Below, piece by piece: positions 17,383 through 38,000 of a stretch of 64,000 nt of DNA; the stretch's first letter is position 1; every line of letters begins with the position of its first letter. Location of the stretch: the NCBI GenBank assembly GCA_003154195.1, contig PMCS01000018.1, positions 44,773 to 108,772 of the forward strand, read 5' to 3'. The notes under the pieces were generated by a model. It was given only the letters and a program-made list of their open reading frames with translations. It was not told where the DNA came from and searched no databases. The position numbers were made by a program, and so were the translations under genes. The DNA comes from Candidatus Omnitrophota bacterium. GTDB taxonomy: Bacteria; Omnitrophota; Gorgyraeia; Duberdicusellales; 4484-171.

Positions 17383-19299
17383 TTATCCGCTCGTATAAAC
17401 CGCGGCGATCAGGTAGGCTTTATATTTTTTACCCTGGTACTCCACAGTATCGGTAACTTTATTCCAATCGACGTTTTCCGTGGCCTTGCCCAGGGTATAA
17501 TTATGCACCAAGTCGTCGTTTTGCTTCTGGCCGTAACCGGCGGCATAAGAAGTCGTGATGTAGTCGCCGGCTTCGATTGGGCCGTTAATGTCGCATACCC
17601 ACACCCGGCCTTCGCCTACCGCATTGACAAAGCCTTTTTGCTCTTTACCTTTGTACCAGTGGCTGTCTAAATCGAATTTTTTCACAAAAACGCCGAGGAT
17701 CGTTTTATCATTAGGCGAATTCGCCAGCTTTACCGTGGGCAAAGTATAGGACAAAGATATTTCGTCCCTACTGTCCTTGCGCAAGCGCGTCTCTCCGGTA
17801 ACGCAGACGATCACCCCCGGTTTAAATGCCGAATAATCTTTGGGTAGTAAACAATCGTGCGCGCCGGTAAAAGTGGCATACTTGACGCCTGGCCCCTGCG
17901 CTAGAAAGTTAGTCCCGTCTCCATTAGATAAAAATGAAACAAGGGTGGTGCCATTGCTTACTACGCCGATTGCCCCTTGAAAAACTCCACCATAATTAAG
18001 TCCCGTACCGGCCACGCCGGTATAGGGATAAATATTATGATCAACTGTGGACCCGCTAGCCTCGCCATAAATACCAAAGCCGGAGTCGGACCGGCCGTCA
18101 ACGCCTTTACCGTTCGAGTTATATCCTAAAATGCCGTCGCCAAGGTCGGTGAAACTCCAACCATAGATACCTTCGTGAGTCTCGCTATAGCCTTTAACTC
18201 CGACACCGTTAGTGCTGCTGCCATAAACACCAAGGGCGTTGGTGCTGTCACCCCAAACACCGCCGCTGAAACCGCCGTCTCCCTTTACACCGTAATCATT
18301 ATTGTCAATACTAGTGCTATGACCATAAACGCCGATCGTCCCCATGCCATATACGCCGTTACCGGTACCTTCGCCATAACCGCTCACGCCATACGATGTT
18401 CCGCGGCCGCATACGCCATCCCCGGATGTTGCAAAGCCAAATACGCCATACGCCCCCCCATTGCCAACCACGCCGGTGTCGCTTAAACCATCGATAATCA
18501 TACCGGCCGCCGCAGTGATACCATACACCCCGGGCCCTCCGTTACCGACTATGCCACTGCCGCTCACATCATAGCCAATAGGGCTTGCCCCAGCAGCCTC
18601 ACCACACATGCCGATTGGCCCCGTGCCATACACGCCATATGTCGCTGTTCCATCGCCATACACACCGGTCGGTCCACTGCCATACACGCCATATGTCGCT
18701 CCTGCGCCGGCCACACCACTGCTGGCGGGCAGAATATCGGGCGCCCCGCCGCCCCGGCCCATTACACCATATGTAGTTCCATAAGCATATACACCATAGG
18801 GGTTTCCGTTGCCATACACGCCCATGGTGTTTGTGGTTGTGCCATACCCCATTACACCGGATGAGGAATCTGCTGTTCCATATCCTTTTACACCGGCGTA
18901 TGTACTAGTGCCATATACGCCAGCCGATGGCCCAGAGCCATACACGCCGTACCCGTTCAGCCCGGTAGCCGTACCATGAATCGCATCGCCGTCCGTGCTT
19001 CTTGATGTATCAAGCGGATAGGCGGGAGTTACCGTCCCGATTCCCACGTTACCTTCAACTATCAAATCGGCGTTGGCGTCTATTGGTGTTCCTGCACCGC
19101 CTGACCAGGTATACAGGGAAGGATTATAATAATTATCGCCGATTGCTATTTTCTTCGCGCGGAGTTCATTATAAACTCCGAACGGCGCGGGATAGTAGGT
19201 GGTAATCGTGATGGTTTCCTGGGCATAAGCGATCAGGGAAAAAATAGCAAGAAGAAAACAAAAAGCGGATAACCTGATTAATCTGGTGGTTATAGTCAT
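17383..19299 (-). CDS. Secreted Gly/Tyr-rich repeat surface protein (tail-fibre-like)
   Basis: Signal peptide. N-terminal TTYYPAPFGVY and GNVGIGTVTP motifs. ~350 aa of YGVYG/GVSGYG repeats; the DNA shows direct repeats such as ccatacacgccatatgtcgct x2. Globular C-terminal ~170 aa. Confidence 0.7.
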   Translation of the reverse strand: MTITTRLIRLSAFCFLLAIFSLIAYAQETITITTYYPAPFGVYNELRAKKIAIGDNYYNPSLYTWSGGAGTPIDANADLIVEGNVGIGTVTPAYPLDTSRSTDGDAIHGTATGLNGYGVYGSGPSAGVYGTSTYAGVKGYGTADSSSGVMGYGTTTNTMGVYGNGNPYGVYAYGTTYGVMGRGGGAPDILPASSGVAGAGATYGVYGSGPTGVYGDGTATYGVYGTGPIGMCGEAAGASPIGYDVSGSGIVGNGGPGVYGITAAAGMIIDGLSDTGVVGNGGAYGVFGFATSGDGVCGRGTSYGVSGYGEGTGNGVYGMGTIGVYGHSTSIDNNDYGVKGDGGFSGGVWGDSTNALGVYGSSTNGVGVKGYSETHEGIYGWSFTDLGDGILGYNSNGKGVDGRSDSGFGIYGEASGSTVDHNIYPYTGVAGTGLNYGGVFQGAIGVVSNGTTLVSFLSNGDGTNFLAQGPGVKYATFTGAHDCLLPKDYSAFKPGVIVCVTGETRLRKDSRDEISLSYTLPTVKLANSPNDKTILGVFVKKFDLDSHWYKGKEQKGFVNAVGEGRVWVCDINGPIEAGDYITTSYAAGYGQKQNDDLVHNYTLGKATENVDWNKVTDTVEYQGKKYKAYLIAAVYTSG

Positions 19300-19735: not shown

Positions 19736-20566
19736 TCACAATCTTATATTGCAGGTAGAAAACAGTTTTTGGGGGAGCCGGGCAATCAAGCGCTCTGCCT
19801 CTACGCGTTTTCGCCAGAGGCCGGAAAAGTCTTTGGGTAAAAACGGATCTTTTACCAATAATTGATTGAATTCATGAAACAATTCCCCGCCTTTGAGGTA
19901 GTACTCTTTAAAATTGACTTCGTTTGTTTCTATAATACGGGTGTAGTCATTACAGCTTTCTATTAGTTTGTCGTAACGGCTATCGAGATTTTGTAAATTC
20001 CATGCCCGGTCAGCAATCTCATCGATATTTTTTCCGGCAAAAAAATTACCTTCGTATATGCAAAGATATTTCAGTAATCCATATTCCCGGCATCGATGGT
20101 TGATTTGATGCGTATAGTCGTAGCAGGAAGCCCAGCAGCTGTCCTGAATCATCCCGAATCCCAGCGCCTGCAGGTTATGCCGTAACCACTCCCGGTGTTT
20201 TTTGCTTCGCTCGGGGATATCGTAAATAACGAGGCGCCATTTTTTATCCCATTTTTTTTGAAACTGTTGCGCTTTTATGTCTATGGCATCCGACAGAAAA
20301 CTGTATCGCCGGTCTTTATTAAAAGAAAACTGAAGTTTTTTTGCCTTAATTTTACGGATATAGCCTTTTCGGCATAACGATGCGGTTCTATTGTGTAATC
20401 TTTGCCGCGAATACAATTCGAATAATTGCGAACCGTGCAGGGCTTTCGGCCAAAAAGGCGGGGTGGAAAAAAAGAGGCAAAAATATAACATTTCCAAACT
20501 TTCTCTTAATAAAAAATCCGTCGCGTCGTTCATGCCGTATTTAACTCTGTTTAATGTTTTATTCAT
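19736..20566 (-). CDS. PaaX-like domain regulator (putative)
   Basis: WDKKWRLVIYDIPERSKKHREWLRHNLQALGFGMIQDSCWAS resembles the PaaX C-terminal domain WDGxWxLVxxxIPE..R..LR..L...GFG.L...VW. Confidence 0.45.
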   Translation of the reverse strand: MNKTLNRVKYGMNDATDFLLRESLEMLYFCLFFSTPPFWPKALHGSQLFELYSRQRLHNRTASLCRKGYIRKIKAKKLQFSFNKDRRYSFLSDAIDIKAQQFQKKWDKKWRLVIYDIPERSKKHREWLRHNLQALGFGMIQDSCWASCYDYTHQINHRCREYGLLKYLCIYEGNFFAGKNIDEIADRAWNLQNLDSRYDKLIESCNDYTRIIETNEVNFKEYYLKGGELFHEFNQLLVKDPFLPKDFSGLWRKRVEAERLIARLPQKLFSTCNIRL

Positions 20567-21445: not shown

Positions 21446-22942
21446 TCAGAAATAGAGATCTCGTTCACCTTTTTTAATCTTTTCGTAATACTCGATCAAC
21501 TTCGGATAAATTTTGGGCATTTTTTCTTTTATTTCCGCCAGTTCACGGTTGATGACTTTTTCTCCGATTTTTTTCGTCGCCGGCCCGGCGAAATCGTCGA
21601 GCCACTCTCGGAAGGTGAGGATCGCGTTGAGTTTGCAGAATTTTCCTTCCTGTCCGGTTTTTAAAAGGTCCATAATACATTCTCCTGTCCGGCCGCAGCG
21701 GTAGCCGGCGGTGCAAAAAGAAGTGATATAACCCATGCGGCAGAATTCCGCGATTAATTCCTCGAGGCTGCGGGTATCGCCCAGCAAAAATTGCTGGCGT
21801 TTGGTTTCTTGTTTACCGCTGCTTCCGCTATAGGCGCCGATGCCGATACGCGTCGAGGCGTCGGTCTGGGTAACGCCTAATTGTATCGAGCGGCGGCGCA
21901 TCTGGGGCGTTTCCCGCGCGGTGATGATCATACCGGTATAAGGGACGCTTAAGCGGATTACCGTGATGAGCTTTTCAAAATTACGGTCAGATACTTTATG
22001 GCGTGAATCTATCGTATACGGCGCGTTGGCCGCCGGCTCAAGGCGCGGGAAAGAAATCGTGTGCGGCCCGATGCCGAATTGTTTTTCCAGTTCCCGGGCG
22101 TGGGCGACCAGGCCCATTACTTCGAATTTCCAGTCGTATAAACCAAAAAGCGCGCCGATGCCTACGTCGTCGATTCCTGCTTCGAGAGCGCGGTGCATCG
22201 TGTAAAGCCGCCATCGGTAGTCTGATTTTAATGTTCCCCGGGGATGCAGAGTGGCATAGGTATCGTGATGGTAAGTTTCCTGAAACACCTGGTAGGTGCC
22301 CAGCCCCGCCCGTTTTAAAATTTTTAATTCGTTAACGGGCATCGGCGCGGCATTGACGTTTACCCGGCGTATCCGGCTAAAGCCGTGTTTTGTTTTGGCC
22401 TTAACCTTGTAGATTTCTTTTATCGTTTTGACCATGTATCTCACATCAGCCCGGGGGTGTTCGCCGTAAACGACAATCAGGCGTTTGTGGCCGATTTTTC
22501 CCGCGAGGACTTCGGTTTCTTTCCGCACTTCTTCGAGGCTTAATATTTTTCGCTTTGCTTCCTTGTTGCCTTGCCGGAATCCGCAATAAAGGCAGTCATT
22601 CAGGCAAAGATTGCTCAGGTAAAGCGGGGCGAAAGTGACAATTCGGTTATCATAAACTTTTTTCTTGATCTGTAGGGCGGTTTTTTCCATTTCCCGCAGG
22701 AGGCCGGTATCGGTGACGTTTAATAGCGCTGCCGTTTCGTCGAGGGTTAAGGTTTCAATCGCGAGGGATTTCGCTAAGATGTTTTTTATTTTTTCCGGGC
22801 CGGGATGATTATTTGCTTTAAGAGTTTTAATTATTTCATTATCATCGATAAAATCCTTGCCGTTAACCAGGTATTTTTCAAACTCGTTTTTTTTGATTCG
22901 ATTCTTCGCCCAGTTTTTCACGTCGATTGATTTTTTTATCAT
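21446..22942 (-). CDS. hydG: HydG-like radical SAM enzyme (ThiH/HydG tyrosine-lyase family)
   Basis: NRIVTFAPLYLSNLCLNDCLYCGF radical-SAM CX3CX2C site. C-terminal FCTAGYRCGRTGECIM...KFCKLNAILTFREWL resembles the HydG auxiliary-cluster region. Start set at MIKKS because the longer ORF N-terminus overlaps an intergenic hairpin. Confidence 0.75.
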   Translation of the reverse strand: MIKKSIDVKNWAKNRIKKNEFEKYLVNGKDFIDDNEIIKTLKANNHPGPEKIKNILAKSLAIETLTLDETAALLNVTDTGLLREMEKTALQIKKKVYDNRIVTFAPLYLSNLCLNDCLYCGFRQGNKEAKRKILSLEEVRKETEVLAGKIGHKRLIVVYGEHPRADVRYMVKTIKEIYKVKAKTKHGFSRIRRVNVNAAPMPVNELKILKRAGLGTYQVFQETYHHDTYATLHPRGTLKSDYRWRLYTMHRALEAGIDDVGIGALFGLYDWKFEVMGLVAHARELEKQFGIGPHTISFPRLEPAANAPYTIDSRHKVSDRNFEKLITVIRLSVPYTGMIITARETPQMRRRSIQLGVTQTDASTRIGIGAYSGSSGKQETKRQQFLLGDTRSLEELIAEFCRMGYITSFCTAGYRCGRTGECIMDLLKTGQEGKFCKLNAILTFREWLDDFAGPATKKIGEKVINRELAEIKEKMPKIYPKLIEYYEKIKKGERDLYF

Positions 22943-23091
22943 AAGTTCTCGGCTGTAGAATTTGAATAAAAACCTAAAACCTACCACCAAGACACCAAGG
23001 CATAAAGAAAAGGTGAATTTTCTTGGTGGCTTGGTGTCTTGGTGGTAAATCTTTTGGTTTTATTTTATCTGCGATCATCAGCATTTTCTAA

Positions 23092-24411
23092 TCAGTGATC
23101 CTCTGCGTTTTCTCTGATTCCCAAATCTGTTGGCGCCCTTCCCAGGGATTTTAGGAGCGAGACGGTCGTTTCTATTTGTGAAGATATGCTATCGCCGGAG
23201 TGCGCTTTATTGGGATAAATCTCGTAGTGCCGGCGGTACTTAAGCGGCGTAACATTAAGCATAACTGTATTGCCGCCGCTTAGCAACCCTTGCCGCATCC
23301 CGGAAGGATCAACCGTCTCCAGGGCCGTGGTTACGGCGATCTTCGCGTTGGCGGCGTCAACCAGCCGGGCTAAAGCCATGACTTTCAGGACATCCGTGGA
23401 TTGTCCCGGCGGGCATGCTGCCAGCGGCGTACCGGGATGTGGTAAGAACGGGCCGAAAGAATACATTTCCGGCCGCAGTTTTTTTGCCAGCTTGATATCG
23501 TCAAGAATATCGGCTACGGTTTGCCCGGGGATGCCGATTAAAGAACCGGTCATGATGATGTAGCCTAATTCGTAAGCCCGGCGGATATGAGCCAGGCGTG
23601 TGTCGAGTGCGCGCCCGGGATGAAGCTTGGCGTAAAGCTCAGGGTTGGAAGTCTCAAAGCGCATCAGCATTGCCCGGCTGCCGGCGTCATATAGTTCCTC
23701 CAATCCTTCCATGCCGAGTTCGCCGAAGCTTACGCAAATCAAAACTGCCGCCTTTTTCTTTATTCCTTTGATAATCCCGGATAATTGTTTTGCGGTGAAG
23801 CCGGGGTCTTCCCCGCTTTGTAAGACTAACGCCTGGAATCCGTATTCTTCGCAGGCTTCGACTGCCGCGGCGATGATTTCTTCCGGCGTCATGCGATAGC
23901 GGGTAATATTTTTATTGTGGCGGGATATGCCGCAATATTGGCAGGCGCTTGCGCAGTGATTGGATATTTCGATGATGCCGTGCACGCAGCAGGAATTTTT
24001 ATGGTACTTTTGGCGCAGGAAATTAGCTGTCTTGAAAAGTAATTCTATTTCCTGGGGGGCGGCGAGACGGAATAAATATTCAAGGTCGTCTTTTTTAAGG
24101 GTTAATCCTTCCATCGCCCGGTCTAAAATCGTGCCGGTTTTCTTATTAATATTTTTTTTATCGAGATCCAGCCGGGAAAGGCGCAGATCGGTGTCCTGAA
24201 GCTGGAAAAAAATCTCACGCCAGGCTTCGATGATCTCCCCCGCTTCTTTTTCCGGCACTTTTTTTATTATAAAACCGCCCTGGGCGCAGACATAATCGCC
24301 GATTTTCAAGTCGTAGAATTCGTTCCGGGCTTTTTTCTCTTCGCCGAAGTAGTCGACAACGACGGTTTTTTCGTTGATCGCTTTAATTTTTCCGGGTATC
24401 GCGTAGCACAT
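23092..24411 (-). CDS. HypC-like domain fused to HydE/BioB/PylB-family radical SAM enzyme
   Basis: N-terminal ~65 aa MCYAIPGKIKAINEKTVVVDYFGEE...GDYVCAQGGFII matches HypC/HupF (Met-Cys start). Followed by IEISNHCASACQYCGISRHNKNITRYRMTPEEI, a HydE-like CX3CX2C radical SAM core. Confidence 0.7.
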   Translation of the reverse strand: MCYAIPGKIKAINEKTVVVDYFGEEKKARNEFYDLKIGDYVCAQGGFIIKKVPEKEAGEIIEAWREIFFQLQDTDLRLSRLDLDKKNINKKTGTILDRAMEGLTLKKDDLEYLFRLAAPQEIELLFKTANFLRQKYHKNSCCVHGIIEISNHCASACQYCGISRHNKNITRYRMTPEEIIAAAVEACEEYGFQALVLQSGEDPGFTAKQLSGIIKGIKKKAAVLICVSFGELGMEGLEELYDAGSRAMLMRFETSNPELYAKLHPGRALDTRLAHIRRAYELGYIIMTGSLIGIPGQTVADILDDIKLAKKLRPEMYSFGPFLPHPGTPLAACPPGQSTDVLKVMALARLVDAANAKIAVTTALETVDPSGMRQGLLSGGNTVMLNVTPLKYRRHYEIYPNKAHSGDSISSQIETTVSLLKSLGRAPTDLGIRENAEDH

Positions 24412-25171
24412 TGTTTAAACCTCAAAAATAAAACCAAAAACTTACCACCAAGGCACTAAGATTTTTATCACCAAGACACCAAGAAGAAAAAACTTTCTAC
24501 TACCCGCTCGCTTTGTTCGCTGAAGGACACGAAGCTCACGAAAGAAAACAAAAAATAATTTTCAGCCACAGGTTAACACAGATGGACACAGATAAATATA
24601 AAAAAATGTTTCCCGCAAAGTTCGCGAAGAAAATAAAAATCTTTACCGCAGGCACAAAGGATACAAGAAAGCTTCAAGGTATTTCCCGCAAAGGCGCAAA
24701 GTGCGCAAAGAAAAACAAAACTAAAATTTCGCCTGATTGGGCGAGTTCACAGAGAAAAAATATATCTGCCCCGTTTTGCACTATTTTTATTAAACCAATT
24801 TTTTATTCTTTTTCTCTATTTTTAAAAAAATGTTTGTATCTTCCGATTCCACATATTCTGGAGATAGGCAACTTATTTTATCGCCTTTTCTTATTTGTGC
24901 AATTTGCGTGATTCGTTGTTAAAATTTTCCCCTAGTTTTCTTATTTTTTATTTATCTTTTCTTTTTCTTAATCTGCGTAATCTGTGGACAAAAAATTTTT
25001 GTTTTTATTTTTTCTTCGTGAGCTTCGTGCTCTTCAGCGAGTACTCAAGCGGGTGGTGAAAATTATTTTCCCAATTTTTTATCCTGTCCATCCGTGTTCA
25101 TCTGTGGCCAATAATTCTAGGTCTTATTTTTTTGTGTCTTTGTGCCTTCGTGGTAAATCTTTTGGTTCTGT
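24412..25171. repeat. Nested inverted-repeat element in a 760-bp non-coding gap
   Basis: Outer arms accaccaaggcactaag (24447-) and gtgccttcgtggtaaatcttttgg (25143-). Inner arms cccgctcgctttgttcgctgaaggacacgaagctcacgaa (24503-) and ttcgtgagcttcgtgctcttcagcgagtactcaagcgggtgg (25017-). Internal cacagat / atctgtggac motifs. Confidence 0.6.
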
Positions 25172-25414
25172 TTATTCTATATCAAACGAAACCACGTCCA
25201 CCCTCTCCGCCATGAAACAGGTAATCTCTAATTCCACCCCTTCCAGGATCGTGCCTTTAGCTAAAACGCTGAATGTTTCCCGAAACGAAGTTTCCTTTAT
25301 GCCGGTTAATTCACCGATTTTCAGGCGTATTTTGGTTACGCGCCGGCCGCCTTCCTGTTTCGCGTGTTCGACGATACCTTTGATTATCGGTTCGATGATG
25401 TGCGTTTCGTGCAT
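25172..25414 (-). CDS. hypA: HypA-like nickel metallochaperone N-terminal domain (no zinc-finger domain)
   Basis: Starts MHE (Ni-binding N-terminus). Aligns to HypA through ...RVTKIRLKIGELTGIKETSFRETFSVLAKGTILEGVELEI. Ends at 80 aa without CxxC...CxxC. Confidence 0.6.
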   Translation of the reverse strand: MHETHIIEPIIKGIVEHAKQEGGRRVTKIRLKIGELTGIKETSFRETFSVLAKGTILEGVELEITCFMAERVDVVSFDIE

Positions 25415-25504
25415 AGAATATAGAAAAAATATAGATATAGAAAACCATAAAGATTCACCACGAAGGTCACGAAGGTCACGAAGAAATTTTTTATAAATGC
25501 CTGA

Positions 25505-26011
25505 TTAGTGTTTTTGTGCCTTAGTGTCTTGGTGGTAAGTTTTTGGTTTTTCTTTAGTCGCTTCGATTATCAATCTTGAAACTTCACCGACGGCTTTTTT
25601 AACCGGCTCCGACAATTCTTCCCCGAAAGAAATATTTTCCGGCTGTATCGCCAACAGATATATATCGGCCTTGATCCGGCTTTGTAAATATTCGATAAAA
25701 AGTTTCGGCGAAATATTATGCGTGGTGAATCCCGAGTTGGCGATTTCCTCGTTTTTCAGGATCCGGTATTGCCCAGTCTCTAAACCCAAGTGCGCCGCGT
25801 CGATGAGTATTACCGTATCGGGTTTTTCTTTGATTATCTTGCCGCTGTGGTTTTCCGGGGCGCTTCCCGCGTCGATGCATACTGCGGCGGTATGATTTTT
25901 TAATCTTTCGATAATTGCCGGACCCAATCCATCGTCCGAGCGTAAAGTATTGCCTATCCCGACAAAAACAATTTTGCCCTTTAGTATATCCTGAAATATA
26001 TTTTTTGCCAT
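25505..26011 (-). CDS. [NiFe] hydrogenase maturation endopeptidase (HycI/HybD family)
   Basis: KIVFVGIGNTLRSDDGLGPAII ... DAG ... VILIDAAH, the typical protease family pattern. Confidence 0.8.
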   Translation of the reverse strand: MAKNIFQDILKGKIVFVGIGNTLRSDDGLGPAIIERLKNHTAAVCIDAGSAPENHSGKIIKEKPDTVILIDAAHLGLETGQYRILKNEEIANSGFTTHNISPKLFIEYLQSRIKADIYLLAIQPENISFGEELSEPVKKAVGEVSRLIIEATKEKPKTYHQDTKAQKH

Positions 26012-26135: not shown

Positions 26136-26747
26136 TTATTCTTTCGTCGTCAAGGTAGTTTCCCGGCGGCAGCGGCTGCAGAGGATTTTTACCCGGTCGG
26201 AACGGCCGAAGTCTTTTAACGCGGAAGTGATATTTTCGTCGATTATACCCAGGCCTTTCAGCTTTGACAGGTAAAGGGTGGGGTTAGAAAAGCTAAGTTC
26301 CCCGATTCTTTCGGCGATCCATTTCAGGTGGTCTTTGCAAGCAATGACCGCGCCGCAAATTTCGCATAACTGTAATTCTTTTTCAATCTCTTCCTGGGAA
26401 AGTTTGCGGTCAAAAAACGACAATTCCCAGTCGTTGGATAATTTAATCCCCTCTTTATCGGCAAGGCAGCCGGCTTCGCACTGGCCGCAAAAAATACAGG
26501 TGTCGGTATAGTGGATCATTTTACGCCGTGGCGATTTGTCATCGATGATATCGACTGATTTTATCGCGCGGACCGGGCAGACCTGTTCGCAGGCGGTGCA
26601 GCCGACACATTTAGCTTCGTTGAACTTAGGTTGCCCCCGGAAACTGGGATAAGGCCTATGCGTTTCGTAAGGGAATTTTGAAGTATACGGCCCTTTCCAC
26701 AACGCTTTTATCGCTTCGATTAATTCTCTCAGTTTAGGCAATCTCAT
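26136..26747 (-). CDS. 2x[4Fe-4S] ferredoxin subunit (NuoI/EchF/MbhN-like) with C-terminal extension
   Basis: CVGCTACEQVCP and CIFCGQCEAGC motifs. Confidence 0.75.
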   Translation of the reverse strand: MRLPKLRELIEAIKALWKGPYTSKFPYETHRPYPSFRGQPKFNEAKCVGCTACEQVCPVRAIKSVDIIDDKSPRRKMIHYTDTCIFCGQCEAGCLADKEGIKLSNDWELSFFDRKLSQEEIEKELQLCEICGAVIACKDHLKWIAERIGELSFSNPTLYLSKLKGLGIIDENITSALKDFGRSDRVKILCSRCRRETTLTTKE

Positions 26748-27046
26748 TTATCCCCGTTTTTTTTAAACGGCTCTATTCCGTTCTTGAGGGCCGCCCGGCT
26801 TATTGCGTGGGCCGCCGTCGGAGTCGTCAATAATATAAAAATCATGCAGATGATGATTTTCGCACCGGCGGCGTTAAGGCCGGTTACCAGAAAGGTCCCG
26901 AATAATATGCCGCATGTCCCGGCAGTGACGCATTTGGTCGCGGCTTGCATGCGGTTATAAACGTCGGGCAGCCTGATGATGCCGATACAGCCGATCACAT
27001 TAAATGCCAGCCCAATACTTATAAATATAAAACCTGCGATAACCAT
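26744..27046 (-). CDS. mrpG: Mrp antiporter-module subunit G (MnhG/MbhB-like)
   Basis: IIRLPDVYNRMQAATKCVTAGTCGILFG, the MnhG signature; 3 TM helices. Confidence 0.85.
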   Translation of the reverse strand: MVIAGFIFISIGLAFNVIGCIGIIRLPDVYNRMQAATKCVTAGTCGILFGTFLVTGLNAAGAKIIICMIFILLTTPTAAHAISRAALKNGIEPFKKNGDK

Positions 27047-27209
27047 AGTTTATATTCCAGTTTTTTTCTTGTGGTTTTGCCACAAGGTATTTTCTCGAAG
27101 GGAAGGTTTGCTCGCCAAAAGTTTCCAACTTTTGGCGGAGTCTCGCTCTTGACGGAGAAACCGCAGGTTTCCAAATATATAAATCAATTCCTGCTTCGCA
27201 GGAATTGAT
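27047..27209 (-). ncRNA. Structured intergenic region (three stem-loops) between mrpF and mrpG
   Basis: Hairpins cttgtggttttgccacaag; gccaaaagtttccaacttttggc; aaatcaattcctgcttcgcaggaattgattt. Confidence 0.3.
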
Positions 27210-27579
27210 TTATTCGTCGAAGCCCTTTCCTTCCAGGTATTTTGCCAGGGCCAGCGTGCTGATAAAGCTTTGCAGCGTCCAGGCAATCGCGATGTCAATA
27301 TACCATGACCGTCCGGTGGGGATGGTAAGGATCGCGCATAGCCCCACGAGCATAACGCCTAAAATATCCAGAACGACGATCCGGTCGGCTCCCGTCGGGC
27401 CTTTAATCAGGCGCCAGAGCAGCAGCAAACAGCAAAGCAAAAGGATAAACAGCGCCCGGCCGAAAAAAGCGACATGAGGCAAGTCGTGATAAAAAAGAAA
27501 CGGCAGAGGTTTTATAATGATCAACCCGATTGCCGACATTAAAGCTATTGCTCCGATAAACCACTTCAATCTTTTCATG
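27210..27579 (-). CDS. mrpF: Mrp antiporter-module subunit F
   Basis: RLIKGPTGADRIVVLDILG, the MnhF signature. Start set at MKRLKW, which is directly preceded by the recurrent start-proximal palindrome. Confidence 0.8.
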
Positions 27580-27645
27580 TTATTCCCCTTATTTTTTTGC
27601 TTAGCAAAAAAATAATTATATAAAAAAATTCCGGAGGGAATTTTT

Positions 27646-28143
27646 TTATTCAAAAATCTTTTTCAACAGCGGTTCGAACTTACCCGCAATCAGCCGTGTC
27701 GCGGTTTCGCTGTCTTCGGCCTTAACGTTAATCCAGTGAATATATAAAATACCTTTATCTTTATCGATATTGACGCACATCGTTCCCGGAATAAGGGTAA
27801 TTGAATTGGCTAAAAAAGTAAGCCCGATATCGCTGGTCAACGATGTTTTTATCTGAACGATCCCCGGGTTAATCGGCAGGTCAGGATGCAGAATACGCCA
27901 GGCAGCGTCAATATTGGCTTTGAGGCACTGCCAGGCAAATAATGGTAAGTAGCCGATTAAAAAATACCCCCAGCGAGAAGGGCGCGTGAACAATCGCGTT
28001 CCGTCGATAAATAAATCGCCGCAGAGTAAAGCCGTCAAGCCGGCCGCGGCAATGCCCGCTAAAAGATGCTGGCTGTCCGGCGGCCAGGATAAAAGCATCC
28101 AAATCGCTAAAGCGGCGATGAATAAAGCTAACCTGCGCCTCAC
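27646..28143 (-). CDS. mrpE: Mrp antiporter-module subunit E
   Basis: SITLIPGTMCVNID, MnhE-like. Confidence 0.8.
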   Translation of the reverse strand: MRRRLALFIAALAIWMLLSWPPDSQHLLAGIAAAGLTALLCGDLFIDGTRLFTRPSRWGYFLIGYLPLFAWQCLKANIDAAWRILHPDLPINPGIVQIKTSLTSDIGLTFLANSITLIPGTMCVNIDKDKGILYIHWINVKAEDSETATRLIAGKFEPLLKKIFE

Positions 28144-29645
28144 TTTATTCCTCCCAGAATCATTAAGCTATGGTTTATTCCTTCCTGCAGGACTCCGCCG
28201 GCTTTGCCCAGAAAAATTTCACGAGCGCCGGCAAAGCCCAGTATTCCGCCGATGACGCAGATGGCCGCCAGGATGGTCATGGACAAGCGCATCAGCCCCG
28301 GCACTTCTTTAATGTCGCCTAAATTTGTGTTGAATTCGCCACCAAAAGCATATTTCATGACCTTGGCGAATGAGGCTAAGGTCATGATGCTGACTAAAAC
28401 CGCCAGGAAGGCGTAACCGAACCGGCCGGCATCGACTAACGCTACGATAATGATTAGTTTGCTCCAGAAACCGTTGAGCGGCGGGATCCCGGCGATGGAC
28501 ATCGACGCGACCAAAGCCGTGGCGCCGGTTACGGGCATCTTTTGCGCCAAACCGCCCATCTTTCTTAAATCGCGTGTTTTCGCGGCATATTCGACTGCGC
28601 CGGAATTTAGAAAGAGCAGAGATTTAAATACCGAGTGGTTAAAAAGATGGAACAGGCCACCGAGGATGCCCAGGGGCGTCCCCAGTCCGATACCTAAAAA
28701 AACATAGCCGATCTGGCTTATCGAATGATAAGCTAACAGGCGTTTAAAATCCCACTGGCCGATCGCCGAGAATACTCCTACTGTCATCGATAACGCGCCT
28801 AAAAACATCAGGACAGCGGAAAACTTCGCGTCCATCCCCAGCACATTAAAAAATAAGCGGCATAATGTATATACGCCTAAGGATTTTATGAGTACGCCGG
28901 AAAGCATCGCGGAAATGGGCGCCGGGGCAGAAGGGTGTGCGTCGGGAAGCCAGCCGTGAAAAGGTACCAGCGCCGCCTTAAGTCCGAATCCCATTATAAA
29001 CATGACGGCTACCATCAACGAGATGTTGCTTTTGCCTTTTTGCAGCAGAGCGCAGGCGATATCCGCCATATTGAGCGTTGAGGTAAAACTGTATAATAGC
29101 CCGATGCCGAGAAGAATGAATAACGACCCGACTGCGCTCATCAGGGTATATTTAAAGGAAGCTTCCAATTCATGACGTCCTGTCCCGAAGGCGACTAACG
29201 CAAAACTTGCGATTGAAGCAATTTCTAAAAAGACGAACAGGTTGAAAATATCGCCGGTGATCACAACACCGTTCATTCCTGCGACCATCAATAAGAATAA
29301 AGCGAAAAATTTTCCTTTTGAGGTGTATCGTTCCATGTACGGCCCGCTGTAAATTGCGATTAAAAAGGCGATTAAATTTACCGTGACCAGCATAAACGCC
29401 GAAAATCCGTCAATCACCAAAGTTATGCCCAGCGGCGGTTTCCAGCTGCCCACGTTATAGATTAAAATCCGGTAAAGACCGACTGCTTTAACCGCGGCCA
29501 GGGACAATATCAGCAGCATTCCCGTAACAATCAGCCCCATCGCGTAAGGAAAATGTTTCATCCTTTTCTCTAAAAGAGAGATCAGGAAAGCTCCCCCTAA
29601 GGAGATGACGATAAAAAGCGGAGCGATATTCGCGGCAGCAATCAT
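28140..29645 (-). CDS. mrpD: Mrp subunit D / NuoN-M-like proton-translocating subunit
   Basis: 14-TM antiporter-like fold; conserved WLPDAH and GIPPLNGF motifs. Confidence 0.85.
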   Translation of the reverse strand: MIAAANIAPLFIVISLGGAFLISLLEKRMKHFPYAMGLIVTGMLLILSLAAVKAVGLYRILIYNVGSWKPPLGITLVIDGFSAFMLVTVNLIAFLIAIYSGPYMERYTSKGKFFALFLLMVAGMNGVVITGDIFNLFVFLEIASIASFALVAFGTGRHELEASFKYTLMSAVGSLFILLGIGLLYSFTSTLNMADIACALLQKGKSNISLMVAVMFIMGFGLKAALVPFHGWLPDAHPSAPAPISAMLSGVLIKSLGVYTLCRLFFNVLGMDAKFSAVLMFLGALSMTVGVFSAIGQWDFKRLLAYHSISQIGYVFLGIGLGTPLGILGGLFHLFNHSVFKSLLFLNSGAVEYAAKTRDLRKMGGLAQKMPVTGATALVASMSIAGIPPLNGFWSKLIIIVALVDAGRFGYAFLAVLVSIMTLASFAKVMKYAFGGEFNTNLGDIKEVPGLMRLSMTILAAICVIGGILGFAGAREIFLGKAGGVLQEGINHSLMILGGIK

Positions 29646-29977
29646 CCTTGCAGCTCCTTGATTTTCGTAACGTCGAATGTTTTATATTTCTCGTAGATTC
29701 GCAAAGCCAGGGCGATAAGTATCGAGGTAAACGCCAGGCCGATGATAATTGAGGTTAAGGCCAGGGCCTGGGGAAGCATATCGACCATGTTTTCGATACG
29801 CGCGTTCGGCGAAAGAATCGCGGAGCGCCCTTCCCGGCGGTAGCCCAGGATTATGAAAAATAGGTTGACCGCGTATTGCGCGATGATCGTCCCGATGATT
29901 ATTTTGATGATATTGCGCTTGCGCACGATACAATAGATGCCCAGACAGAAAAGAATAAGGCACAATAGATAAATCAT
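29642..29977 (-). CDS. mrpC: Mrp subunit C (NuoK-like)
   Basis: IIKIIIGTIIAQYAVNLFFI...LPQALALTSIIIGLAFTSILIALAL. Confidence 0.85.
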   Translation of the reverse strand: MIYLLCLILFCLGIYCIVRKRNIIKIIIGTIIAQYAVNLFFIILGYRREGRSAILSPNARIENMVDMLPQALALTSIIIGLAFTSILIALALRIYEKYKTFDVTKIKELQG

Positions 29978-30429
29978 TACCGGTCATCCTCCCGATTTAT
30001 ACGTAAAAGTATCAGGGCGATAAAAATAGCAAAAAGCCCTGCTCCTACCTTGACGCCGATGGCGATATTATATAAAGGCATAATCCCCGCGCTGAACAAT
30101 CGGAATGGTTCGCCTTTACCGATGAAATTCAGTAAAAAATAACCGCCGGTAAAGCCCAGGCCGGCAAGGGCTAAAAACATCAACGCGCCTAGATTTTCAA
30201 TGAATGATGCCGCCGCCCGGGGTAATTTTTTAAAGGCTGATTCTTTACCGTAAGCGAGCATCAACTGGATAAACGCAAGGGCGATAATCACGCCGCCCAC
30301 GAATCCTCCTCCCGGAGAAACGTGGCCGTGGGAAAGGATGTATATGCCGTATAAGAAAATCGGGCCGGCGGTAAGCCGGGTTACGGTTTTTACGATTAAA
30401 GACATCCCTTTATCTTTTTCGTTATTCAT
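29977..30429 (-). CDS. mrpB: Mrp subunit B
   Basis: GHVSPGGGFVGGVI, the MnhB signature. Confidence 0.85.
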   Translation of the reverse strand: MNNEKDKGMSLIVKTVTRLTAGPIFLYGIYILSHGHVSPGGGFVGGVIIALAFIQLMLAYGKESAFKKLPRAAASFIENLGALMFLALAGLGFTGGYFLLNFIGKGEPFRLFSAGIMPLYNIAIGVKVGAGLFAIFIALILLRINREDDR

Positions 30430-30964
30430 TGTCCAGCCCTGTTTCTTCGTTTTTTCTTCCCTTTCGCCGTAAAATAGTTAATACGCCGATTACTGCCGTA
30501 AAAAGAACTGCTGCTTCGCCCAGAGTGTCGTAAGCCCTGAAATCAAGGATTACCGCGGATACCAGGTTGGTTGCCCCGGTATCTTTTAATCCTTCTTTTA
30601 AATATGCCGATGAGGTTTTTATCGTCGGGTAGCCGAATTGCGGCAGCTCTTTGAAACATTTAACCGCGGTGAAAATAAAAACAAAGATAAAACAAACGGT
30701 AATGACGGTATTTACCAACCACCGGCCGCTGGTGGAAAAAGGCAAGTCTTCTTTCATCGTGGCCCGGATTAATATTATCAGGCTTAATATTTCCACAATC
30801 AACTGGGTGATTGCCACATCGGGAGCTTTAAGGACAAGGAAGGTTAACGAAAGCCCCAGCCCGGTTGCGCCCAGCGCGATTACCGAGGAAAGTAGATCTT
30901 TCGTTTCGACGGCGATCGCCGCGGCGACGATGATGAAAATCAATAAGATGTATAAATCCAGCAT
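30422..30964 (-). CDS. MrpA C-terminal-domain / MnhB-like subunit (DUF4040-type, MbhD/E-like)
   Basis: AITQLIVEILSLI ... NLVSAVILDFRAYDTLGEAAVLFTAVIG. Confidence 0.65.
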   Translation of the reverse strand: MLDLYILLIFIIVAAAIAVETKDLLSSVIALGATGLGLSLTFLVLKAPDVAITQLIVEILSLIILIRATMKEDLPFSTSGRWLVNTVITVCFIFVFIFTAVKCFKELPQFGYPTIKTSSAYLKEGLKDTGATNLVSAVILDFRAYDTLGEAAVLFTAVIGVLTILRRKGRKNEETGLDNE

Positions 30965-31093
30965 AAGCGCCCCTTTATTCTCCTTCGCCGAATACCCTGT
31001 GGCTTGCCACAGGGATGAAGGCTTCTGGTATTTGGCTTCGGAGAAATGAAGATAGATACCCCGCGGGCTTGCCGCGGGGAGTACATTTGTGCT

Positions 31094-32749
31094 TCATTTA
31101 ATGCTCAGCGCGTAAAACAATATAATCATCCCTAGAAGGCACCAGGCCAAATAATTGGAGATTATACCGTTGTGCATACGGTTTAGTATTCCATTAAGCC
31201 AAAAAACAATTTTTTTGCCTGATTCGTACAAGTCAAAGTTTTTCTCTTCCGCTAACCGGTAAATATTTTTAAAAGGCGGCGCATCGCTTATTGTGTTATA
31301 GAATTCGGTCCCGGATACGCGCATTTGAGGATGGTCTTCCAGGATCTCGCCGCCGATAAAGTTCCGGGTTTCCCTCGGTTTTTTGTTTACGCCCAGCCAA
31401 TAAAATAATAAGCCGATAATAATCGCCGACAATAATAAAATCGTCGCAAGCGGAGAATTCCAAACCCCCGGAAAAACTAATCCGGGACCGACGCTGGGGA
31501 TGATATAATTTTTTAACGGCAGTTGGTAGGCGAAGACGCCGAATAATACGCATAGCGCCGCTAAGACGATTCCGACCGCAAGCATCGGCAATGGGGCTTC
31601 TCCCTGCTTTATGCTCGCGTTGGTTTTATCCGCAGGTTGGCCTAAAAACACCGCGTTAATCAATTTCATGAAGCTGGCTAAAGTCAGGGCGCTGCCGAAC
31701 ATTGCCGCCGCGAGGTATATCATCCACAGGGTATTTCCGGTTTTGGCGGAATCCACGATTGCCTGGTAAATCATCCATTTGGAAGCGAAGCCGTTAAAAG
31801 GCGGAATGCCCGAGATGGCCAGCGAAGCGATTAAAAAAGTTATAAAAGTAACCGGCATAAATTTAGCGTAACCGCCGAGTTTATCCAGATCGGTCGTGCC
31901 GGCTTTTTGTTCCACGTTGCCGGCGGAAAAAAAGAGGCATGATTTATAGATGGCATGGTTGAGCATGTGAAACAAACCGGCGGCGATTCCCAAAGCGGTT
32001 CCCGTACCGATACCTAAGACCATGTAACCGACCTGGCTTACGGCATGGTATCCCAGCAGGCGTTTCAGGTCATGCTGGACCAGCGCCATCATTACTGCGG
32101 CTACGATAGTGATGCTCCCCATAACCATTAGCAGGGTGTTCATCGCCGGGTTCATTATAAATAGATTTAACGACAGGCGGCAGAGCAGATAAATACCCAG
32201 AAGTTTGTCTAAAGATGCCGGCAAATACGCCGTTACCGGAGCCGGCGCGTCCTGGGCGGTATCGGGGATCCAGGTATGGAACGGCATTAATCCGGCTTTG
32301 GCGAAAGCGCCGCAGGCTAAGCACAGGTAAGCGGCGATTGCCGTATTCGAATCTAACGCTATCTTAATCTTAGAGATTTCCAGGGTACCGGTGATTTTCC
32401 AGACCATTGCCAGGCCCAATAACATTATCGCGTCGGAACCGCCGATGATAATCAAAGCTTTCTTGGCAGTGGCCGGAGTATTTTTATTTTCTCCAAAACT
32501 GATAAGAAGATATAAAAGCAGGCCTAAAAATCCCCAGAACACTATTAACACCAGAAGATTGCTTGAAAATATAACACCTAAAGATGCGATAAGGGTCAAT
32601 AAAATATAAAGGTAGTAGGGAAAAATATTTTTTCTTCCCCGCATAAAATCAAAAGAGTAAACCGCAGTCAATAGGGTAAACAAAACCGCGAATAGCCCTA
32701 TAAAAATTGAAAGATTGTCCAGTAATAATAATTGCCAGAAATTGTCCAT
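31094..32749 (-). CDS. mrpA: MrpA/NuoL-like antiporter subunit (MbhH-like)
   Basis: Multi-TM; WIPDTAQDAPAPVTAY and GIPPFNGFASKW motifs. Confidence 0.85.
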   Translation of the reverse strand: MDNFWQLLLLDNLSIFIGLFAVLFTLLTAVYSFDFMRGRKNIFPYYLYILLTLIASLGVIFSSNLLVLIVFWGFLGLLLYLLISFGENKNTPATAKKALIIIGGSDAIMLLGLAMVWKITGTLEISKIKIALDSNTAIAAYLCLACGAFAKAGLMPFHTWIPDTAQDAPAPVTAYLPASLDKLLGIYLLCRLSLNLFIMNPAMNTLLMVMGSITIVAAVMMALVQHDLKRLLGYHAVSQVGYMVLGIGTGTALGIAAGLFHMLNHAIYKSCLFFSAGNVEQKAGTTDLDKLGGYAKFMPVTFITFLIASLAISGIPPFNGFASKWMIYQAIVDSAKTGNTLWMIYLAAAMFGSALTLASFMKLINAVFLGQPADKTNASIKQGEAPLPMLAVGIVLAALCVLFGVFAYQLPLKNYIIPSVGPGLVFPGVWNSPLATILLLSAIIIGLLFYWLGVNKKPRETRNFIGGEILEDHPQMRVSGTEFYNTISDAPPFKNIYRLAEEKNFDLYESGKKIVFWLNGILNRMHNGIISNYLAWCLLGMIILFYALSIK

Positions 32750-32751
32750 AA

Positions 32752-33939: not shown

Positions 33940-33944
33940 ATGTT

Positions 33945-34040
33945 CTAGATGATGATCGCTGATAAAAATAAAGGCAATTGATAATTATTTTTTATCTGTG
34001 GTCATCTGCTTCCTTTGACCTGTGATCATCTGCGCTTACA
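33945..34040. repeat. Intra-operon direct repeats tgtgRtcatctgc x2
   Basis: atctgtggtcatctgcttcctttgacctgtgatcatctgcgc between the large-subunit and NuoC-like genes. Confidence 0.4.
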
Positions 34041-34044
34041 GAAT

Positions 34045-34518: not shown

Positions 34519-34544
34519 AAATAGTACGAATAAATTTTTAAATC

Positions 34545-34660
34545 ATTATAGAATATTGTAGGGGCGGATCCGTGTATCCGCCCGTTACGATTTATTTTAT
34601 TATCATTGAATATTTTATTATTTTGTAACGGGCCGACACATAGGTCGGCCCCTACGATAT
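34545..34660. repeat. gtaggggc...gcccctac palindrome, copy 1
   Basis: tgtaggggcggatccgtgtatccgcccgttacgat...gtaacgggccgacacataggtcggcccctacgat. Confidence 0.6.
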
Positions 34661-35095: not shown

Positions 35096-35099
35096 ATAT

Positions 35100-35215: not shown

Positions 35216-35216
35216 A

Positions 35217-36984: not shown

Positions 36985-36986
36985 TT

Positions 36987-37995: not shown

Positions 37996-38000
37996 TAACG

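Follow-up and report, generated by a model that had tools for sequence, protein, structure and literature searches.

A HypC–HydE-like fusion encoded beside HydG and a group 4 [NiFe] hydrogenase in an Omnitrophota bacterium: a candidate radical-SAM route of [NiFe] maturation

A protein that joins a HypC-like domain to a HydE-like radical-SAM domain is encoded, next to HydG, among the maturation genes of a group 4 [NiFe] hydrogenase in a 64-kb stretch of Omnitrophota DNA (the window, meaning the whole stretch analysed). We consider it somewhat better than even (about 55%) that this fusion is a dedicated [NiFe] maturation factor which, together with HydG, supplies the iron-carbonyl-cyanide unit by radical-SAM chemistry. 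The components of this reading differ in strength: a role of the fusion in [NiFe] maturation is highly likely, the HydG product is its probable substrate, and a complete replacement of HypDEF is rather doubtful. HypC is an iron carrier and HydG a radical-SAM tyrosine lyase that makes an Fe(CO)2(CN)Cys synthon, and, to our knowledge, HydE/HydG-type machinery is known only from iron-iron hydrogenases. If true, the reading would thus describe a new path to the [NiFe] Fe-CO/CN unit that draws on that machinery.

Gene order at the hydrogenase locus

The genes named in the original prediction all exist at the positions it gave, and all lie on the minus strand, in the order [NiFe] hydrogenase, HycI, a short HypA, the HypC–HydE-like fusion and HydG. 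The hydrogenase operon (26136–36140), defined from open reading frames, motifs and the Pfam annotation of identical contigs, comprises a NuoH-like gene (35217–36140), the small subunit (34661–35095), a 30-kDa-like gene (34045–34518), the large subunit (32752–33939) with its motifs RICGICSTSH and DPCYCCTER, Mrp-antiporter-like subunits (26744–32749) and a 2x[4Fe-4S] subunit (26136–26747). Predicted as Ech/Mbh-type, it proved to be a membrane-bound group 4 enzyme of the Mbh/Mrp type, the best PDB match of the large subunit being Pyrococcus furiosus MBH (6CFW_L, 306.6 bits). The genes upstream of it (36264–39709, minus strand) probably belong to the same unit; by Pfam annotation they encode a Rex-like regulator (39041–39709), a Fer4_22 protein (38001–39029), a DHODB-type FAD/NAD(P) protein (36987–37874) and a polyferredoxin (36264–36830), and the first three also occur near the fusion in many other loci.

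Downstream of the operon, the presumed hydrogenase endopeptidase (25505–26011, minus strand) is of the HycI type (TIGR00142, 120.9 bits; cut-off 119.1). The proposed HypA homolog (25172–25414, minus strand) is one only in its N-terminal part: with 80 residues it matches positions 1–66 of the 112 in Pfam HypA and residues 1–64 of PDB 3A43, and scores 56.1 bits against TIGR00100, below the cut-off of 88.1. It keeps the N-terminal MHE nickel site and is missing the zinc-binding CxxC...CxxC domain, as is typical of the family, where 51 of the 60 HypA-bearing fusion loci have this short zinc-less form. Between it and the fusion lies an AT-rich spacer of 760 bp with short doublet repeats (24412–25171). 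Spacing compared across loci marks it as a trait of this lineage, hypA' and the fusion being almost contiguous elsewhere; it may hold a promoter of its own for the fusion and hydG, but a promoter scan of the spacer gave no signal above chance. As predicted, the precomputed Pfam annotation, which covers every called gene in the window, lists no HydA, HydF, HypD, HypE or HypF.

A HypC-like domain joined to a distinct HydE paralogue

The fusion (23092–24411, minus strand; 439 aa) matches Pfam HupF_HypC over residues 1–64 (55.4 bits; cut-off 28.5), bearing out the HypC domain foreseen at its N-terminus, and Pfam Radical_SAM over residues 147–308; its top PDB matches are Thermotoga maritima HydE (TmHydE, 236 bits) and Thermococcus kodakarensis HypC (E 8.7e-12). 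The HypC-like domain (aa 1–78; 24178–24411, minus strand) opens with the invariant MCYAIPG stretch carrying Cys2, and the MC..IPG N-terminus with Cys2 is invariant across the family. The canonical His51, however, is replaced by an invariant Gln44, so this domain might act unlike HypC. In the AF2 model, DSSP assigns it five strands and a helix (54–78), and this long helix closes the domain and runs on into the HydE-like one. The model as a whole forms a single compact unit (pLDDT 90.6, pTM 0.90), and its barrel superimposes on TmHydE with a target-normalised TM of 0.95 (Foldseek).

The HydE-like TIM-barrel domain (aa 96–432; 23116–24126, minus strand) lacks the auxiliary-cluster cysteines. Its C153/C157/C160, Q198 and R251 correspond to TmHydE C63/C67/C70, Q107 and R159, and its M316, T361/T362, M384 and K402 to M224, T268/T269, M291 and K309. 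In TmHydE, the carboxylate of the substrate is gripped by R159, T268 and T269. All 81 fused sequences keep V105 (or L/I), Q107, L157, R159, E161, M224, T268, T269 (or S) and M291, with K or R at K309. Within this set, V105, L157, M224, M291 and K309 are reported to form the TmHydE cavity that receives the Fe(CO)2(CN) species, or to bind or process that species (PMC10114646, PMC11826987).

The domain had been taken for a HydE/BioB-type core, and HydE (TIGR03956) is indeed its top NCBIfam match, but at 254.3 bits it falls just short of the cut-off of 254.6. This holds throughout the family: fused radical-SAM halves score 220–254 bits, all below the cut-off, and form a monophyletic clade, whereas the stand-alone HydE of locus L030 reaches 359.6 bits. 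Because L030 and L049 each hold such a stand-alone HydE as well as the fusion, the fused copy is best seen as a second, specialised paralogue. Judged by sequence, the radical-SAM half is a distinct HydE paralogue and not HydE proper.

A conserved family in [NiFe] gene clusters

The fusion belongs to a conserved family of about 20 clusters at 50% identity, with a mean column identity of 66%. Its architecture recurs in at least 120 homologous clusters at 90% identity. The family is represented in Omnitrophota, Atribacterota, Spirochaetota, Elusimicrobia and further phyla, and is encoded in complete genomes too (CP070797.1, CP070684.1, NZ_CP189974.1 and the Centrionella genome). We compared 82 fusion loci from different species and more than eight phyla, taking 10 kb on either side of each fusion (1.37 Mb in all). 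Upstream, the [NiFe] large subunit is found in 62 loci, HypA in 60 and HycI in 56; the hydrogenase is Mbh/Mrp group 4, Ech-type group 4 or a four-subunit group 3 enzyme, fusion-tree subclades track its type, and the Ni-Fe ligand motifs are intact in all 58 complete large subunits. HydG is the commonest downstream neighbour, present in 41 of the 82 loci (31/68 among those with enough downstream sequence); about half of the loci, among them every Ech-type one and Caldatribacterium, show no HydG within 10 kb. HydA lies near the fusion in two loci, and HydF is absent from 81 by motif scan only, not by HMM. Nowhere in the 1.37 Mb do HypD, HypE, HypF or a stand-alone HypC occur; these loci do hold HypA, HycI and sometimes HypB, as in L046, where the order is hypA-hypB-[hypC::hydE] with hydG adjoining. 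A module hycI–hypA'–hypC::hydE(-like)–(hydG) accompanies three kinds of [NiFe] hydrogenase, and since its gene order repeats in dozens of species, the pattern is not due to chance.

Single-ORF HypC–HydE–HydG proteins exist in at least three divergent lineages (41–45% mutual identity), all within [NiFe] clusters, and their HydG halves fall in different HydG clades. A natural control is provided by a HydE–HydG fusion without HypC, which adjoins HydF and an [FeFe]-hydrogenase-like gene. The alternative named in the original prediction was a set of [FeFe]-maturation genes left behind without the HydA it once served. The HydG clade of the window does also serve [FeFe] clusters, as such a chance remnant would, but [NiFe] synteny, HydG adjacency and the triple fusions make this a poor fit for the fusion; furthermore, the cassette contains no HydF (motif scan), and the arrangement recurs across phyla, hydrogenase types and dozens of species at high identity, a pattern not produced by a handful of close relatives. 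We regard this explanation as extremely improbable.

A passing mention of a HypC–HydE-type fusion appears in one 2026 preprint, which reports that a symbiont of 1,249 genes, whose sole hydrogenase is of the [NiFe] kind and which has no [FeFe] enzyme of its own, retains it, describes the reduced symbiont genome as lacking HypDEF, and leaves HydG unmentioned (bioRxiv 10.64898/2026.04.11.717937). This retention bears on whether the two halves have independent jobs, the HypC part working with a normal HypDEF set for [NiFe] and the HydE part for an [FeFe] enzyme encoded elsewhere, so that the fusion merely mirrors co-expression of hydrogenase maturases. The fully HydE-like pocket would suit such a division, HydF and HydA exist in related genomes (L030, L049, L054, L094), and Rex-type regulators lie near both kinds of hydrogenase genes. 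Moreover, the hydF-hydG pair of L094 is without a hydE within 10 kb, so in some genomes the fusion could be the sole HydE and serve the [FeFe] pathway. Yet bona fide HydE stands alongside the fusion in L030 and L049, and the fused proteins form a monophyletic clade in which the auxiliary cluster is lost and no member reaches the HydE cut-off. HydF (by motif scan only) and HydA are missing from nearly all loci (81 and 80 of 82), and the fusion that does accompany HydF is the one without HypC. The symbiont keeps the protein with [NiFe] alone, and the structure is predicted as a single rigid unit. Together these points leave two separate jobs quite unlikely.

Alternatively, the fused HydE-like domain might do without HydG, acting on an iron-cysteine species built directly on the HypC domain or drawn from general Fe-S machinery, in chemistry that has nothing to do with the HydG synthon. 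The many loci lacking a nearby HydG and the silence of the preprint on HydG would agree with this, as would HydE homologues with another carrier-like domain (PF11823) at the N-terminus, which show that the HydE scaffold is reused. Against it stand the triple fusions in three lineages, the place of HydG as the commonest downstream neighbour and the invariance of the residues by which TmHydE holds Fe(CO)2(CN); we rate HydG-free chemistry as very unlikely.

HydG and the proposed route

The HydG assignment was upheld: the gene (21446–22942, minus strand; 498 aa from ATG, with a TTG-started version extending to 22990) matches TIGR03955 over its full length (456.7 bits; cut-off 312) and Thermoanaerobacter italicus HydG (4WCX, 439 bits). 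Residue mapping places the radical-SAM cysteines at C113/C117/C120 and the dangler-Fe histidine at H281. The C-terminal auxiliary-cluster motif that had been noted exists as C410-x2-G-x2-C416-x5-C422...C436, but departs from the canonical CX2CX22C, the second Cys being Gly413 and two extra invariant cysteines (C416, C422) being present. This altered motif marks a 'type A' HydG clade, is common to all 120 nearest 90%-identity clusters, and recurs in canonical hydF-hydG(-hydE) and HydABC clusters of related genomes (L030, L094). By its sequence relationships, then, HydG is the ordinary HydG of the lineage and not a [NiFe]-specific variant. It is probably common to several pathways and, in genomes with an [FeFe] hydrogenase, is likely to supply a separate stand-alone HydE and HydF as well; because of this shared clade, its adjacency here could reflect co-regulation of all hydrogenase maturases. 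The predicted hybrid pathway is accordingly retained as to the fusion, tied to [NiFe] genes and linked to HydG by adjacency and triple fusions, and is given up as to a special HydG and a true HydE.

The favoured route would run from HydG through the HydE-like domain and the tethered HypC Cys2 to the [NiFe] large subunit. Going by full-length homology and the conserved radical-SAM cysteines and dangler-Fe histidine, HydG would cleave tyrosine, and its auxiliary cluster would be the site where an Fe(CO)x(CN)y-cysteine synthon is assembled, as in known HydG chemistry. The conserved residues and predicted fold suggest that the HydE-like pocket would hold this synthon and remove its cysteine by 5'-deoxyadenosyl-radical attack on sulfur. 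More conjecturally, a mononuclear Fe(CO)(CN) would then be caught by Cys2 of the HypC-like domain, rather than pairing with a second Fe unit and moving on to HydF, and that domain would dock onto the large-subunit precursor and hand over the iron unit. Nickel insertion followed by C-terminal trimming is the known order of [NiFe] maturation; the gene set suggests that these steps would fall here to the zinc-less HypA and to HycI.

The [NiFe] site requires one CO and two CN. The known HydG product has 2 CO to 1 CN (HydG chemistry reviewed in PMC10114646), so a HydG-fed route would need an extra step. This ratio suits a CO donor more than a donor of the full Fe(CN)2CO, and half of the fusions have no HydG nearby. 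Both points favour an accessory role, in which HypD/E/F encoded elsewhere give both cyanides and the fusion, with or without HydG, supplies only CO or readies iron on HypC, filling the gap of the anaerobic CO source; the synteny of the 82 loci would look the same. Canonical hypC usually adjoins hypD in hyp operons, yet HypD adjoins the fusion in none of the 82 loci, and the HypC-like domain lacks the His51 that canonical HypC uses. With a symbiont genome described as free of HypDEF, and triple fusions that suggest use of the whole synthon rather than of CO alone, we consider an accessory role unlikely.

Gene order in the window

Hydrogenase and maturation genes share the minus strand of the window. 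A Rex-like regulator, a Fer4_22 protein, an FAD/NAD(P) protein and a polyferredoxin (39709-36264) precede thirteen genes of an Mbh/Mrp-type membrane-bound [NiFe] hydrogenase (36140-26136; Pfam assignments). Behind these follow the HycI endopeptidase (26011-25505; TIGR00142, 120.9 bits against a cut-off of 119.1), an 80-aa HypA encoded by hypA' (25414-25172), an AT-rich spacer of 760 bp (24412-25171), a fusion of a HupF/HypC domain with a HydE-like barrel (24411-23092) and HydG (22942-21446; TIGR03955). This confirms the original prediction of HydG, a HypC–HydE-like fusion, HycI and HypA behind the hydrogenase operon. Domain annotation also bears out its further statement that HydA, HydF, HypD, HypE and HypF are absent, as their domains occur in no called gene of the 64-kb window. 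The same sequence is found, identical, in Stordalen Mire metagenomes and in the MAG GCA_003154645.1.

The hydrogenase large subunit holds both cysteine pairs that ligate Ni-Fe (RxCGxC and DPCxxC) as well as a C-terminal extension, and its best solved relative is the P. furiosus MBH (6CFW_L, 306.6 bits); the membrane subunits match the Pfam families MbhD/E, MnhB, MNHE, MrpF and PhaG. The Fer4_22 and FAD/NAD(P) proteins, which together with the Rex-like regulator precede this membrane-bound enzyme, are of the kind that soluble group 3 sulfhydrogenases have as beta and gamma subunits, and their genes ahead of a group 4 enzyme suggest an NAD(P)H-linked input.

Downstream of hydG lie genes for an aldo-keto reductase, an epimerase, a HAD hydrolase, an SNase-like protein, an M48 peptidase and a tRNA synthetase. 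These were considered as pathway members and rejected, since they are unrelated and their conservation is confined to a single Omnitrophota clade. A 638-aa ORF without a Pfam match (17383-19299, minus strand) adjoins a PaaX-like regulator with a Cas2-like domain (19736-20566). This ORF varies between strains, differing among otherwise identical contigs (L001, L002 and L004): its length is 617-638 aa in some of them, and in L001 it is split into 115 and 480 aa.

The fusion protein and its family

The HupF/HypC domain occupies residues 1-64 of the fusion and is recognised by Pfam PF01455 (55.4 bits against a cut-off of 28.5), with TIGR00074 reaching 45.1 bits, below its cut-off of 48. The HydE-like barrel begins at about residue 96. 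As anticipated, the top NCBIfam match of the fusion is the HydE model TIGR03956, but its 254.3 bits fall just below the equivalog cut-off of 254.6; five fusion relatives score 219.9-238.6 bits on this model, and the stand-alone HydE of locus L030 scores 359.6. An AlphaFold2 model built from a 70-sequence alignment (pLDDT 90.6, pTM 0.90) predicts an N-terminal domain of five strands joined to the barrel by a long helix, and the predicted barrel superposes on T. maritima HydE (TmHydE, 3IIZ) with a target-normalised TM of 0.95 at 38% identity.

Across the 70 sequences, M1, C2, A4, I5, P6 and G7 of the MCYAIPG start are invariant, and His51 of canonical HypC (E. coli numbering) aligns with an invariant Gln44. 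The extra Cys42 of the HypC domain was rejected as a stand-in for the HypD cysteine, because Y or S can also occupy this position in the family. In the barrel, Q107, L157, R159, E161, M224 and T268 (TmHydE numbering) are invariant in 81 fused sequences. M291 is kept in 80 of the 81, the remaining one having a gap. V105 is conserved in 73 and T269 in 78, with Ser in the other three, and K309 is K or R. We take R159, T268 and T269 to be the binders of the substrate carboxylate in TmHydE. The three auxiliary-cluster cysteines, which the stand-alone HydE of L030 possesses, are absent from the 81 fused sequences. Reviews and computations on TmHydE, naming V105, L157, M224, M291 and K309, have the Fe(CO)2(CN)-cysteine synthon bound in front of SAM, after which Fe(CO)2(CN)(SH) moves between M291 and M224 (PMC10114646, PMC11826987). 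With HydE (TmHydE, TIGR03956) the fusion has in common the CX3CX2C cluster, the TIM-barrel fold and the pocket residues, but it differs in its N-terminal HypC, in the missing auxiliary-cluster cysteines, in its family's scores of 220-254 bits against the cut-off of 254.6, and in its neighbours, which are [NiFe] hydrogenase, HycI and HypA rather than HydF/HydA.

The search for further HypC–radical-SAM fusions and their neighbours, a step proposed with the original prediction, uncovered a widespread family, mainly in [NiFe] loci. Among 5.8 billion proteins, at least 120 clusters are 58-68% identical to the fusion, nearly all of them two-domain proteins alike and mostly labelled Omnitrophota, and an exhaustive search of 50%-identity representatives yielded about 20 clusters whose alignment begins at residue 1. 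The weakest full-length fusion (278 bits) scores above P0262, a HydE–HydG fusion without HypC (261), and above the best stand-alone HydE (258), and in the tree the fused proteins form a clade apart from stand-alone HydE. NCBI labels for family members vary between HypC-family chaperone, radical SAM protein and HydE. The 80 loci collected, from one genome per species, belong to Omnitrophota, Caldatribacterium/Atribacterota (including a complete genome), Auribacterota, Brevinematales/Spirochaetota, WOR-3, Elusimicrobia, Margulis-/Saganbacteria, Nitrospirae and others. Atribacter laminatus is without [NiFe] hydrogenases. The genus Caldatribacterium was recently isolated, and one member's complete genome carries the fusion at locus L051 (PMC13408713), so experiments are feasible. 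Complete genomes with the fusion include CP070797.1, CP070684.1 and NZ_CP189974.1, and it also lies on the single contigs CAWCLF010000001.1, CAVYGN010000001.1 and CAWIGG010000002.1.

Maturation genes around the fusion

Together with two loci from earlier look-ups, 82 neighbourhoods (1.37 Mb; at most 21 kb each, ±10 kb around the fusion) were scanned by tblastn. A [NiFe] large subunit is present in 62, HypA in 60, HycI in 56 and Rex in 34 of them; HypB, present in three, is almost always missing, HydA appears in two loci, and HypD, HypE, HypF and a stand-alone HypC are found in none. In 73 loci the sequence upstream extends over 2.5 kb or more, and 55 of these have the large subunit upstream on the same strand; RxCGxC and DPCxxC are kept in all 58 complete large subunits. 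The enzyme ahead of the fusion is an Mbh/Mrp group 4, an Ech-type group 4 or a four-subunit group 3 hydrogenase, and the branches of the fusion tree match the hydrogenase type. At L046, where the order is hypA-hypB-[hypC::hydE] with hydG alongside, the fusion and hydG hold the normal position of hypD-E-F.

The fused domain resembles HypC/HybG/HupF in its MC..(I/V)PG start with Cys2, in its small beta-barrel plus helix and in being encoded next to the [NiFe] structural genes, hypA and the protease gene, but it is tethered and has Gln in place of His51. Furthermore, canonical HypC acts with the HypD scaffold in the HypCDEF route to Fe(CN)2CO, in which HypE and HypF derive the cyanide from carbamoyl phosphate, whereas no HypD, HypE or HypF lies beside the fusion in the 82 loci. 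HydF was looked for by sequence motifs only; it appears in one of the 82 loci, L030, where NCBIfam then confirmed it, beside a separate HydE. Genes of 610-635 aa behind the fusion in some loci were rejected as HydA, being sensor kinases or Ech membrane subunits. On a 1.28-Mb Omnitrophota chromosome (L095, CP070684.1), hypA', the fusion and hydG follow one another with no hydrogenase gene within ±10 kb; the maturation module is therefore separable from the structural genes.

The HypA of the window keeps the N-terminal MHE nickel site (MHETH...) and is without any CxxC, scoring 56.1 bits on TIGR00100 against a cut-off of 88.1; since it matches only the first 66 of 112 model positions, it has no zinc domain. 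N-terminal MHE or VHE is present in 60 of 60 HypA proteins from fusion loci, and in 51 of these loci HypA has the short form, the whole zinc-binding CxxC...CxxC domain being gone. This mini-HypA is kept across phyla wherever the fusion comes after Mbh or group 3 enzymes, and full-length HypA (111-119 aa) is found in Ech-type loci, L046 and L057. On both sides of hypA' in the window, AT-rich non-coding stretches (24412-25171 and 25415-25504) contain many short doublet repeats in both orientations, such as CACGAAGNTCACGAAG, with 4 matches against 0.05 expected by chance, and CGCAAAGTNCGCNAAG. Rfam has no match for these stretches, and scans for the Rex operator consensus, promoters/terminators and Rfam families gave nothing beyond chance. 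Other species are without the stretches, and hypA' and the fusion are separated there by anything from a few bases to a few tens.

HydG, found in 41 of the 82 loci, is the most frequent gene downstream of the fusion. Triple fusions, with HypC, HydE and HydG in one ORF, occur in at least three lineages, L019 (921 aa), L088/P0242 (943 and 906 aa) and P0252 (881 aa), which are 41-45% identical to one another. Because the HydG halves of these proteins come from different HydG clades, the genes were probably joined on more than one occasion. Both L088 and P0252 lie within group 3 [NiFe] clusters. At L019 (CP070797.1, 823350-844651), the triple fusion is accompanied by an Mrp-type membrane module, HycI and mini-HypA; a large- or small-subunit match is absent from the 10 kb upstream, where only short ORFs stand in the expected place. 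P0262, the HydE–HydG protein without HypC, adjoins HydF and an [FeFe]-hydrogenase-like sensor gene; set against the triple fusions, it indicates that the HypC domain accompanies [NiFe] surroundings and is lacking in [FeFe] ones.

The HydG of the window reaches 456.7 bits with TIGR03955, where the cut-off is 312, covering positions 7-470 of the 470-position model, and it matches T. italicus HydG (4WCX) with 439 bits. Its radical-SAM cysteines C113/C117/C120 and dangler-iron His H281 are present, both invariant in 39 HydGs from the loci. While this full-length match secures the identity first read from the sequence, the auxiliary motif on which that reading had drawn is noncanonical. It departs from CX2CX22C in that C410 and C436 are kept, the second Cys is Gly413, and C416 and C422, invariant in the clade, are added; residues 410-436 read C-x2-G-x2-C-x5-C...C instead of CX2C...C. 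HydGs with this altered motif (type A) form a monophyletic clade, and the motif is common to the nearest 120 90%-identity clusters (P0391-P0510).

The altered motif could have marked a HydG dedicated to [NiFe] enzymes, an idea rejected on two grounds: type A HydG also occurs in hydF-hydG-hydE and HydABC-HydF-HydG clusters (L030 and L094), and canonical-motif HydGs too come after the fusion. At L030, a group 3 [NiFe] cluster whose last gene is the fusion is preceded, 5 kb upstream, by a partial HydF (TIGR03918, 276 bits over the C-terminal half), type A HydG and stand-alone HydE. At L094, a HydABC – TM1266-like – ammonia-lyase – HydF cluster ends with type A HydG. Moreover, L049 and L054 have an [FeFe] HydABC cluster downstream of the cluster with the [NiFe] genes and the fusion, followed at L049 by its own HydG and HydE. 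From these arrangements, the HydG clade of the window is the lineage's ordinary HydG, stand-alone and fused HydE can coexist in one genome, and hydA and hydF may well lie elsewhere in the window's genome. Compared with 4WCX, the window HydG is alike over its full length, in the radical-SAM Cys, the dangler-iron His and the two outer Cys of the auxiliary motif, and members of its clade adjoin HydF and HydA; it differs in coming after a [NiFe] operon and the fusion, without HydF.

The hybrid pathway put forward in the original prediction is partly supported by these sequence comparisons: synteny places the fusion with [NiFe] maturation, and adjacency and triple fusions point to a functional tie with HydG, but that HydG is shared and ordinary. 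HydG is, moreover, missing from about half of the neighbourhoods, so the fusion may act independently of HydG, or may supply only CO while HypDEF work beside it.

A candidate route to the [NiFe] cofactor

[NiFe] and [FeFe] hydrogenases are the textbook case of convergent active sites with unrelated maturation machineries, and we know of no settled source for the carbonyl ligand in the [NiFe] enzymes of anaerobes. The iron carrier of [NiFe] maturation and a radical-SAM maturase of the [FeFe] type, combined in one widespread and conserved protein, would connect both systems. Lying in [NiFe] operons beside, and sometimes joined to, HydG, the generator of tyrosine-derived CO/CN, the fusion is a directly testable candidate both for the ligand source and for a cross-over of the two maturation systems.

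Going beyond the observed gene content, conservation, synteny and fusions, we propose a second route to the [NiFe] cofactor, one based on radical-SAM enzymes, from tyrosine through the HydG synthon, a HydE paralogue and its own HypC to the large subunit, dispensing with HypD, HypE, HypF and carbamoyl phosphate; we give this reading a chance of roughly one in three. HydG would produce an organometallic iron synthon, the HydE-like domain would take off its cysteine through radical chemistry, and Cys2 of the tethered HypC would catch the mononuclear Fe-CO/CN fragment, so that dimerisation and hand-over to HydF would not take place. The HypC domain would then pass the iron unit to the large subunit, mini-HypA would insert nickel, and HycI would cut the C-terminal extension. 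Such a scheme would need a conversion from 2 CO + 1 CN to 1 CO + 2 CN. If this tyrosine-based route is real, the fusion, HydG, zinc-less HypA and HycI would make up a self-contained four-gene kit moving horizontally with hydrogenase operons, and the diatomic ligands of the [NiFe] and [FeFe] cofactors would share an enzymatic origin in these lineages. For producing [NiFe] hydrogenases in heterologous hosts, it might offer a far smaller set of genes as well.

The fusion system is assembled from known families. Algal HydEF is a maturase fusion and P0262 joins HydE to HydG, both being precedents for fusing consecutive cofactor-assembly steps; they stay in the [FeFe] pathway with HydF, whereas the window fusion combines a [NiFe] carrier with an [FeFe]-type enzyme. 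HypX is an aerobic accessory enzyme giving CO to HypC/HypD-bound iron (PMC6802093). It resembles the role proposed for the fusion as an add-on enzyme supplying a diatomic ligand in [NiFe] maturation, but its protein family is unrelated, its chemistry relies on formyl-tetrahydrofolate and it is used by aerobes.

Among the ten open-access papers naming HydE, HydG and HypC together, none is on a fusion. An architecture like that of the window fusion, by description only, is the 'unusual HydE-HypC fusion protein' of Ca. Centrionella anaeramoebae, a Legionellales symbiont (1.52 Mb, 1,249 genes), to which a preprint devotes a single sentence, without analysis, mechanism or distribution (bioRxiv 10.64898/2026.04.11.717937). 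It lies in a group 3 [NiFe] operon with protease and HypA that 'encodes full maturation machinery'; HypB is present there, unlike in the window. For the symbiont, the preprint names neither HypD/E/F nor HydG, and the sole [FeFe] hydrogenase described is the host's (bioRxiv 10.64898/2026.04.11.717937). This symbiont fits a [NiFe] role of the HydE-like domain in a streamlined genome.

HypC is not the only small domain found at this position. Four HydE homologues (P0304, P0309, P0310 and P0339) carry an N-terminal PF11823 'Se/S carrier-like' domain instead, so small carrier domains seem to have been attached to the HydE N-terminus repeatedly.
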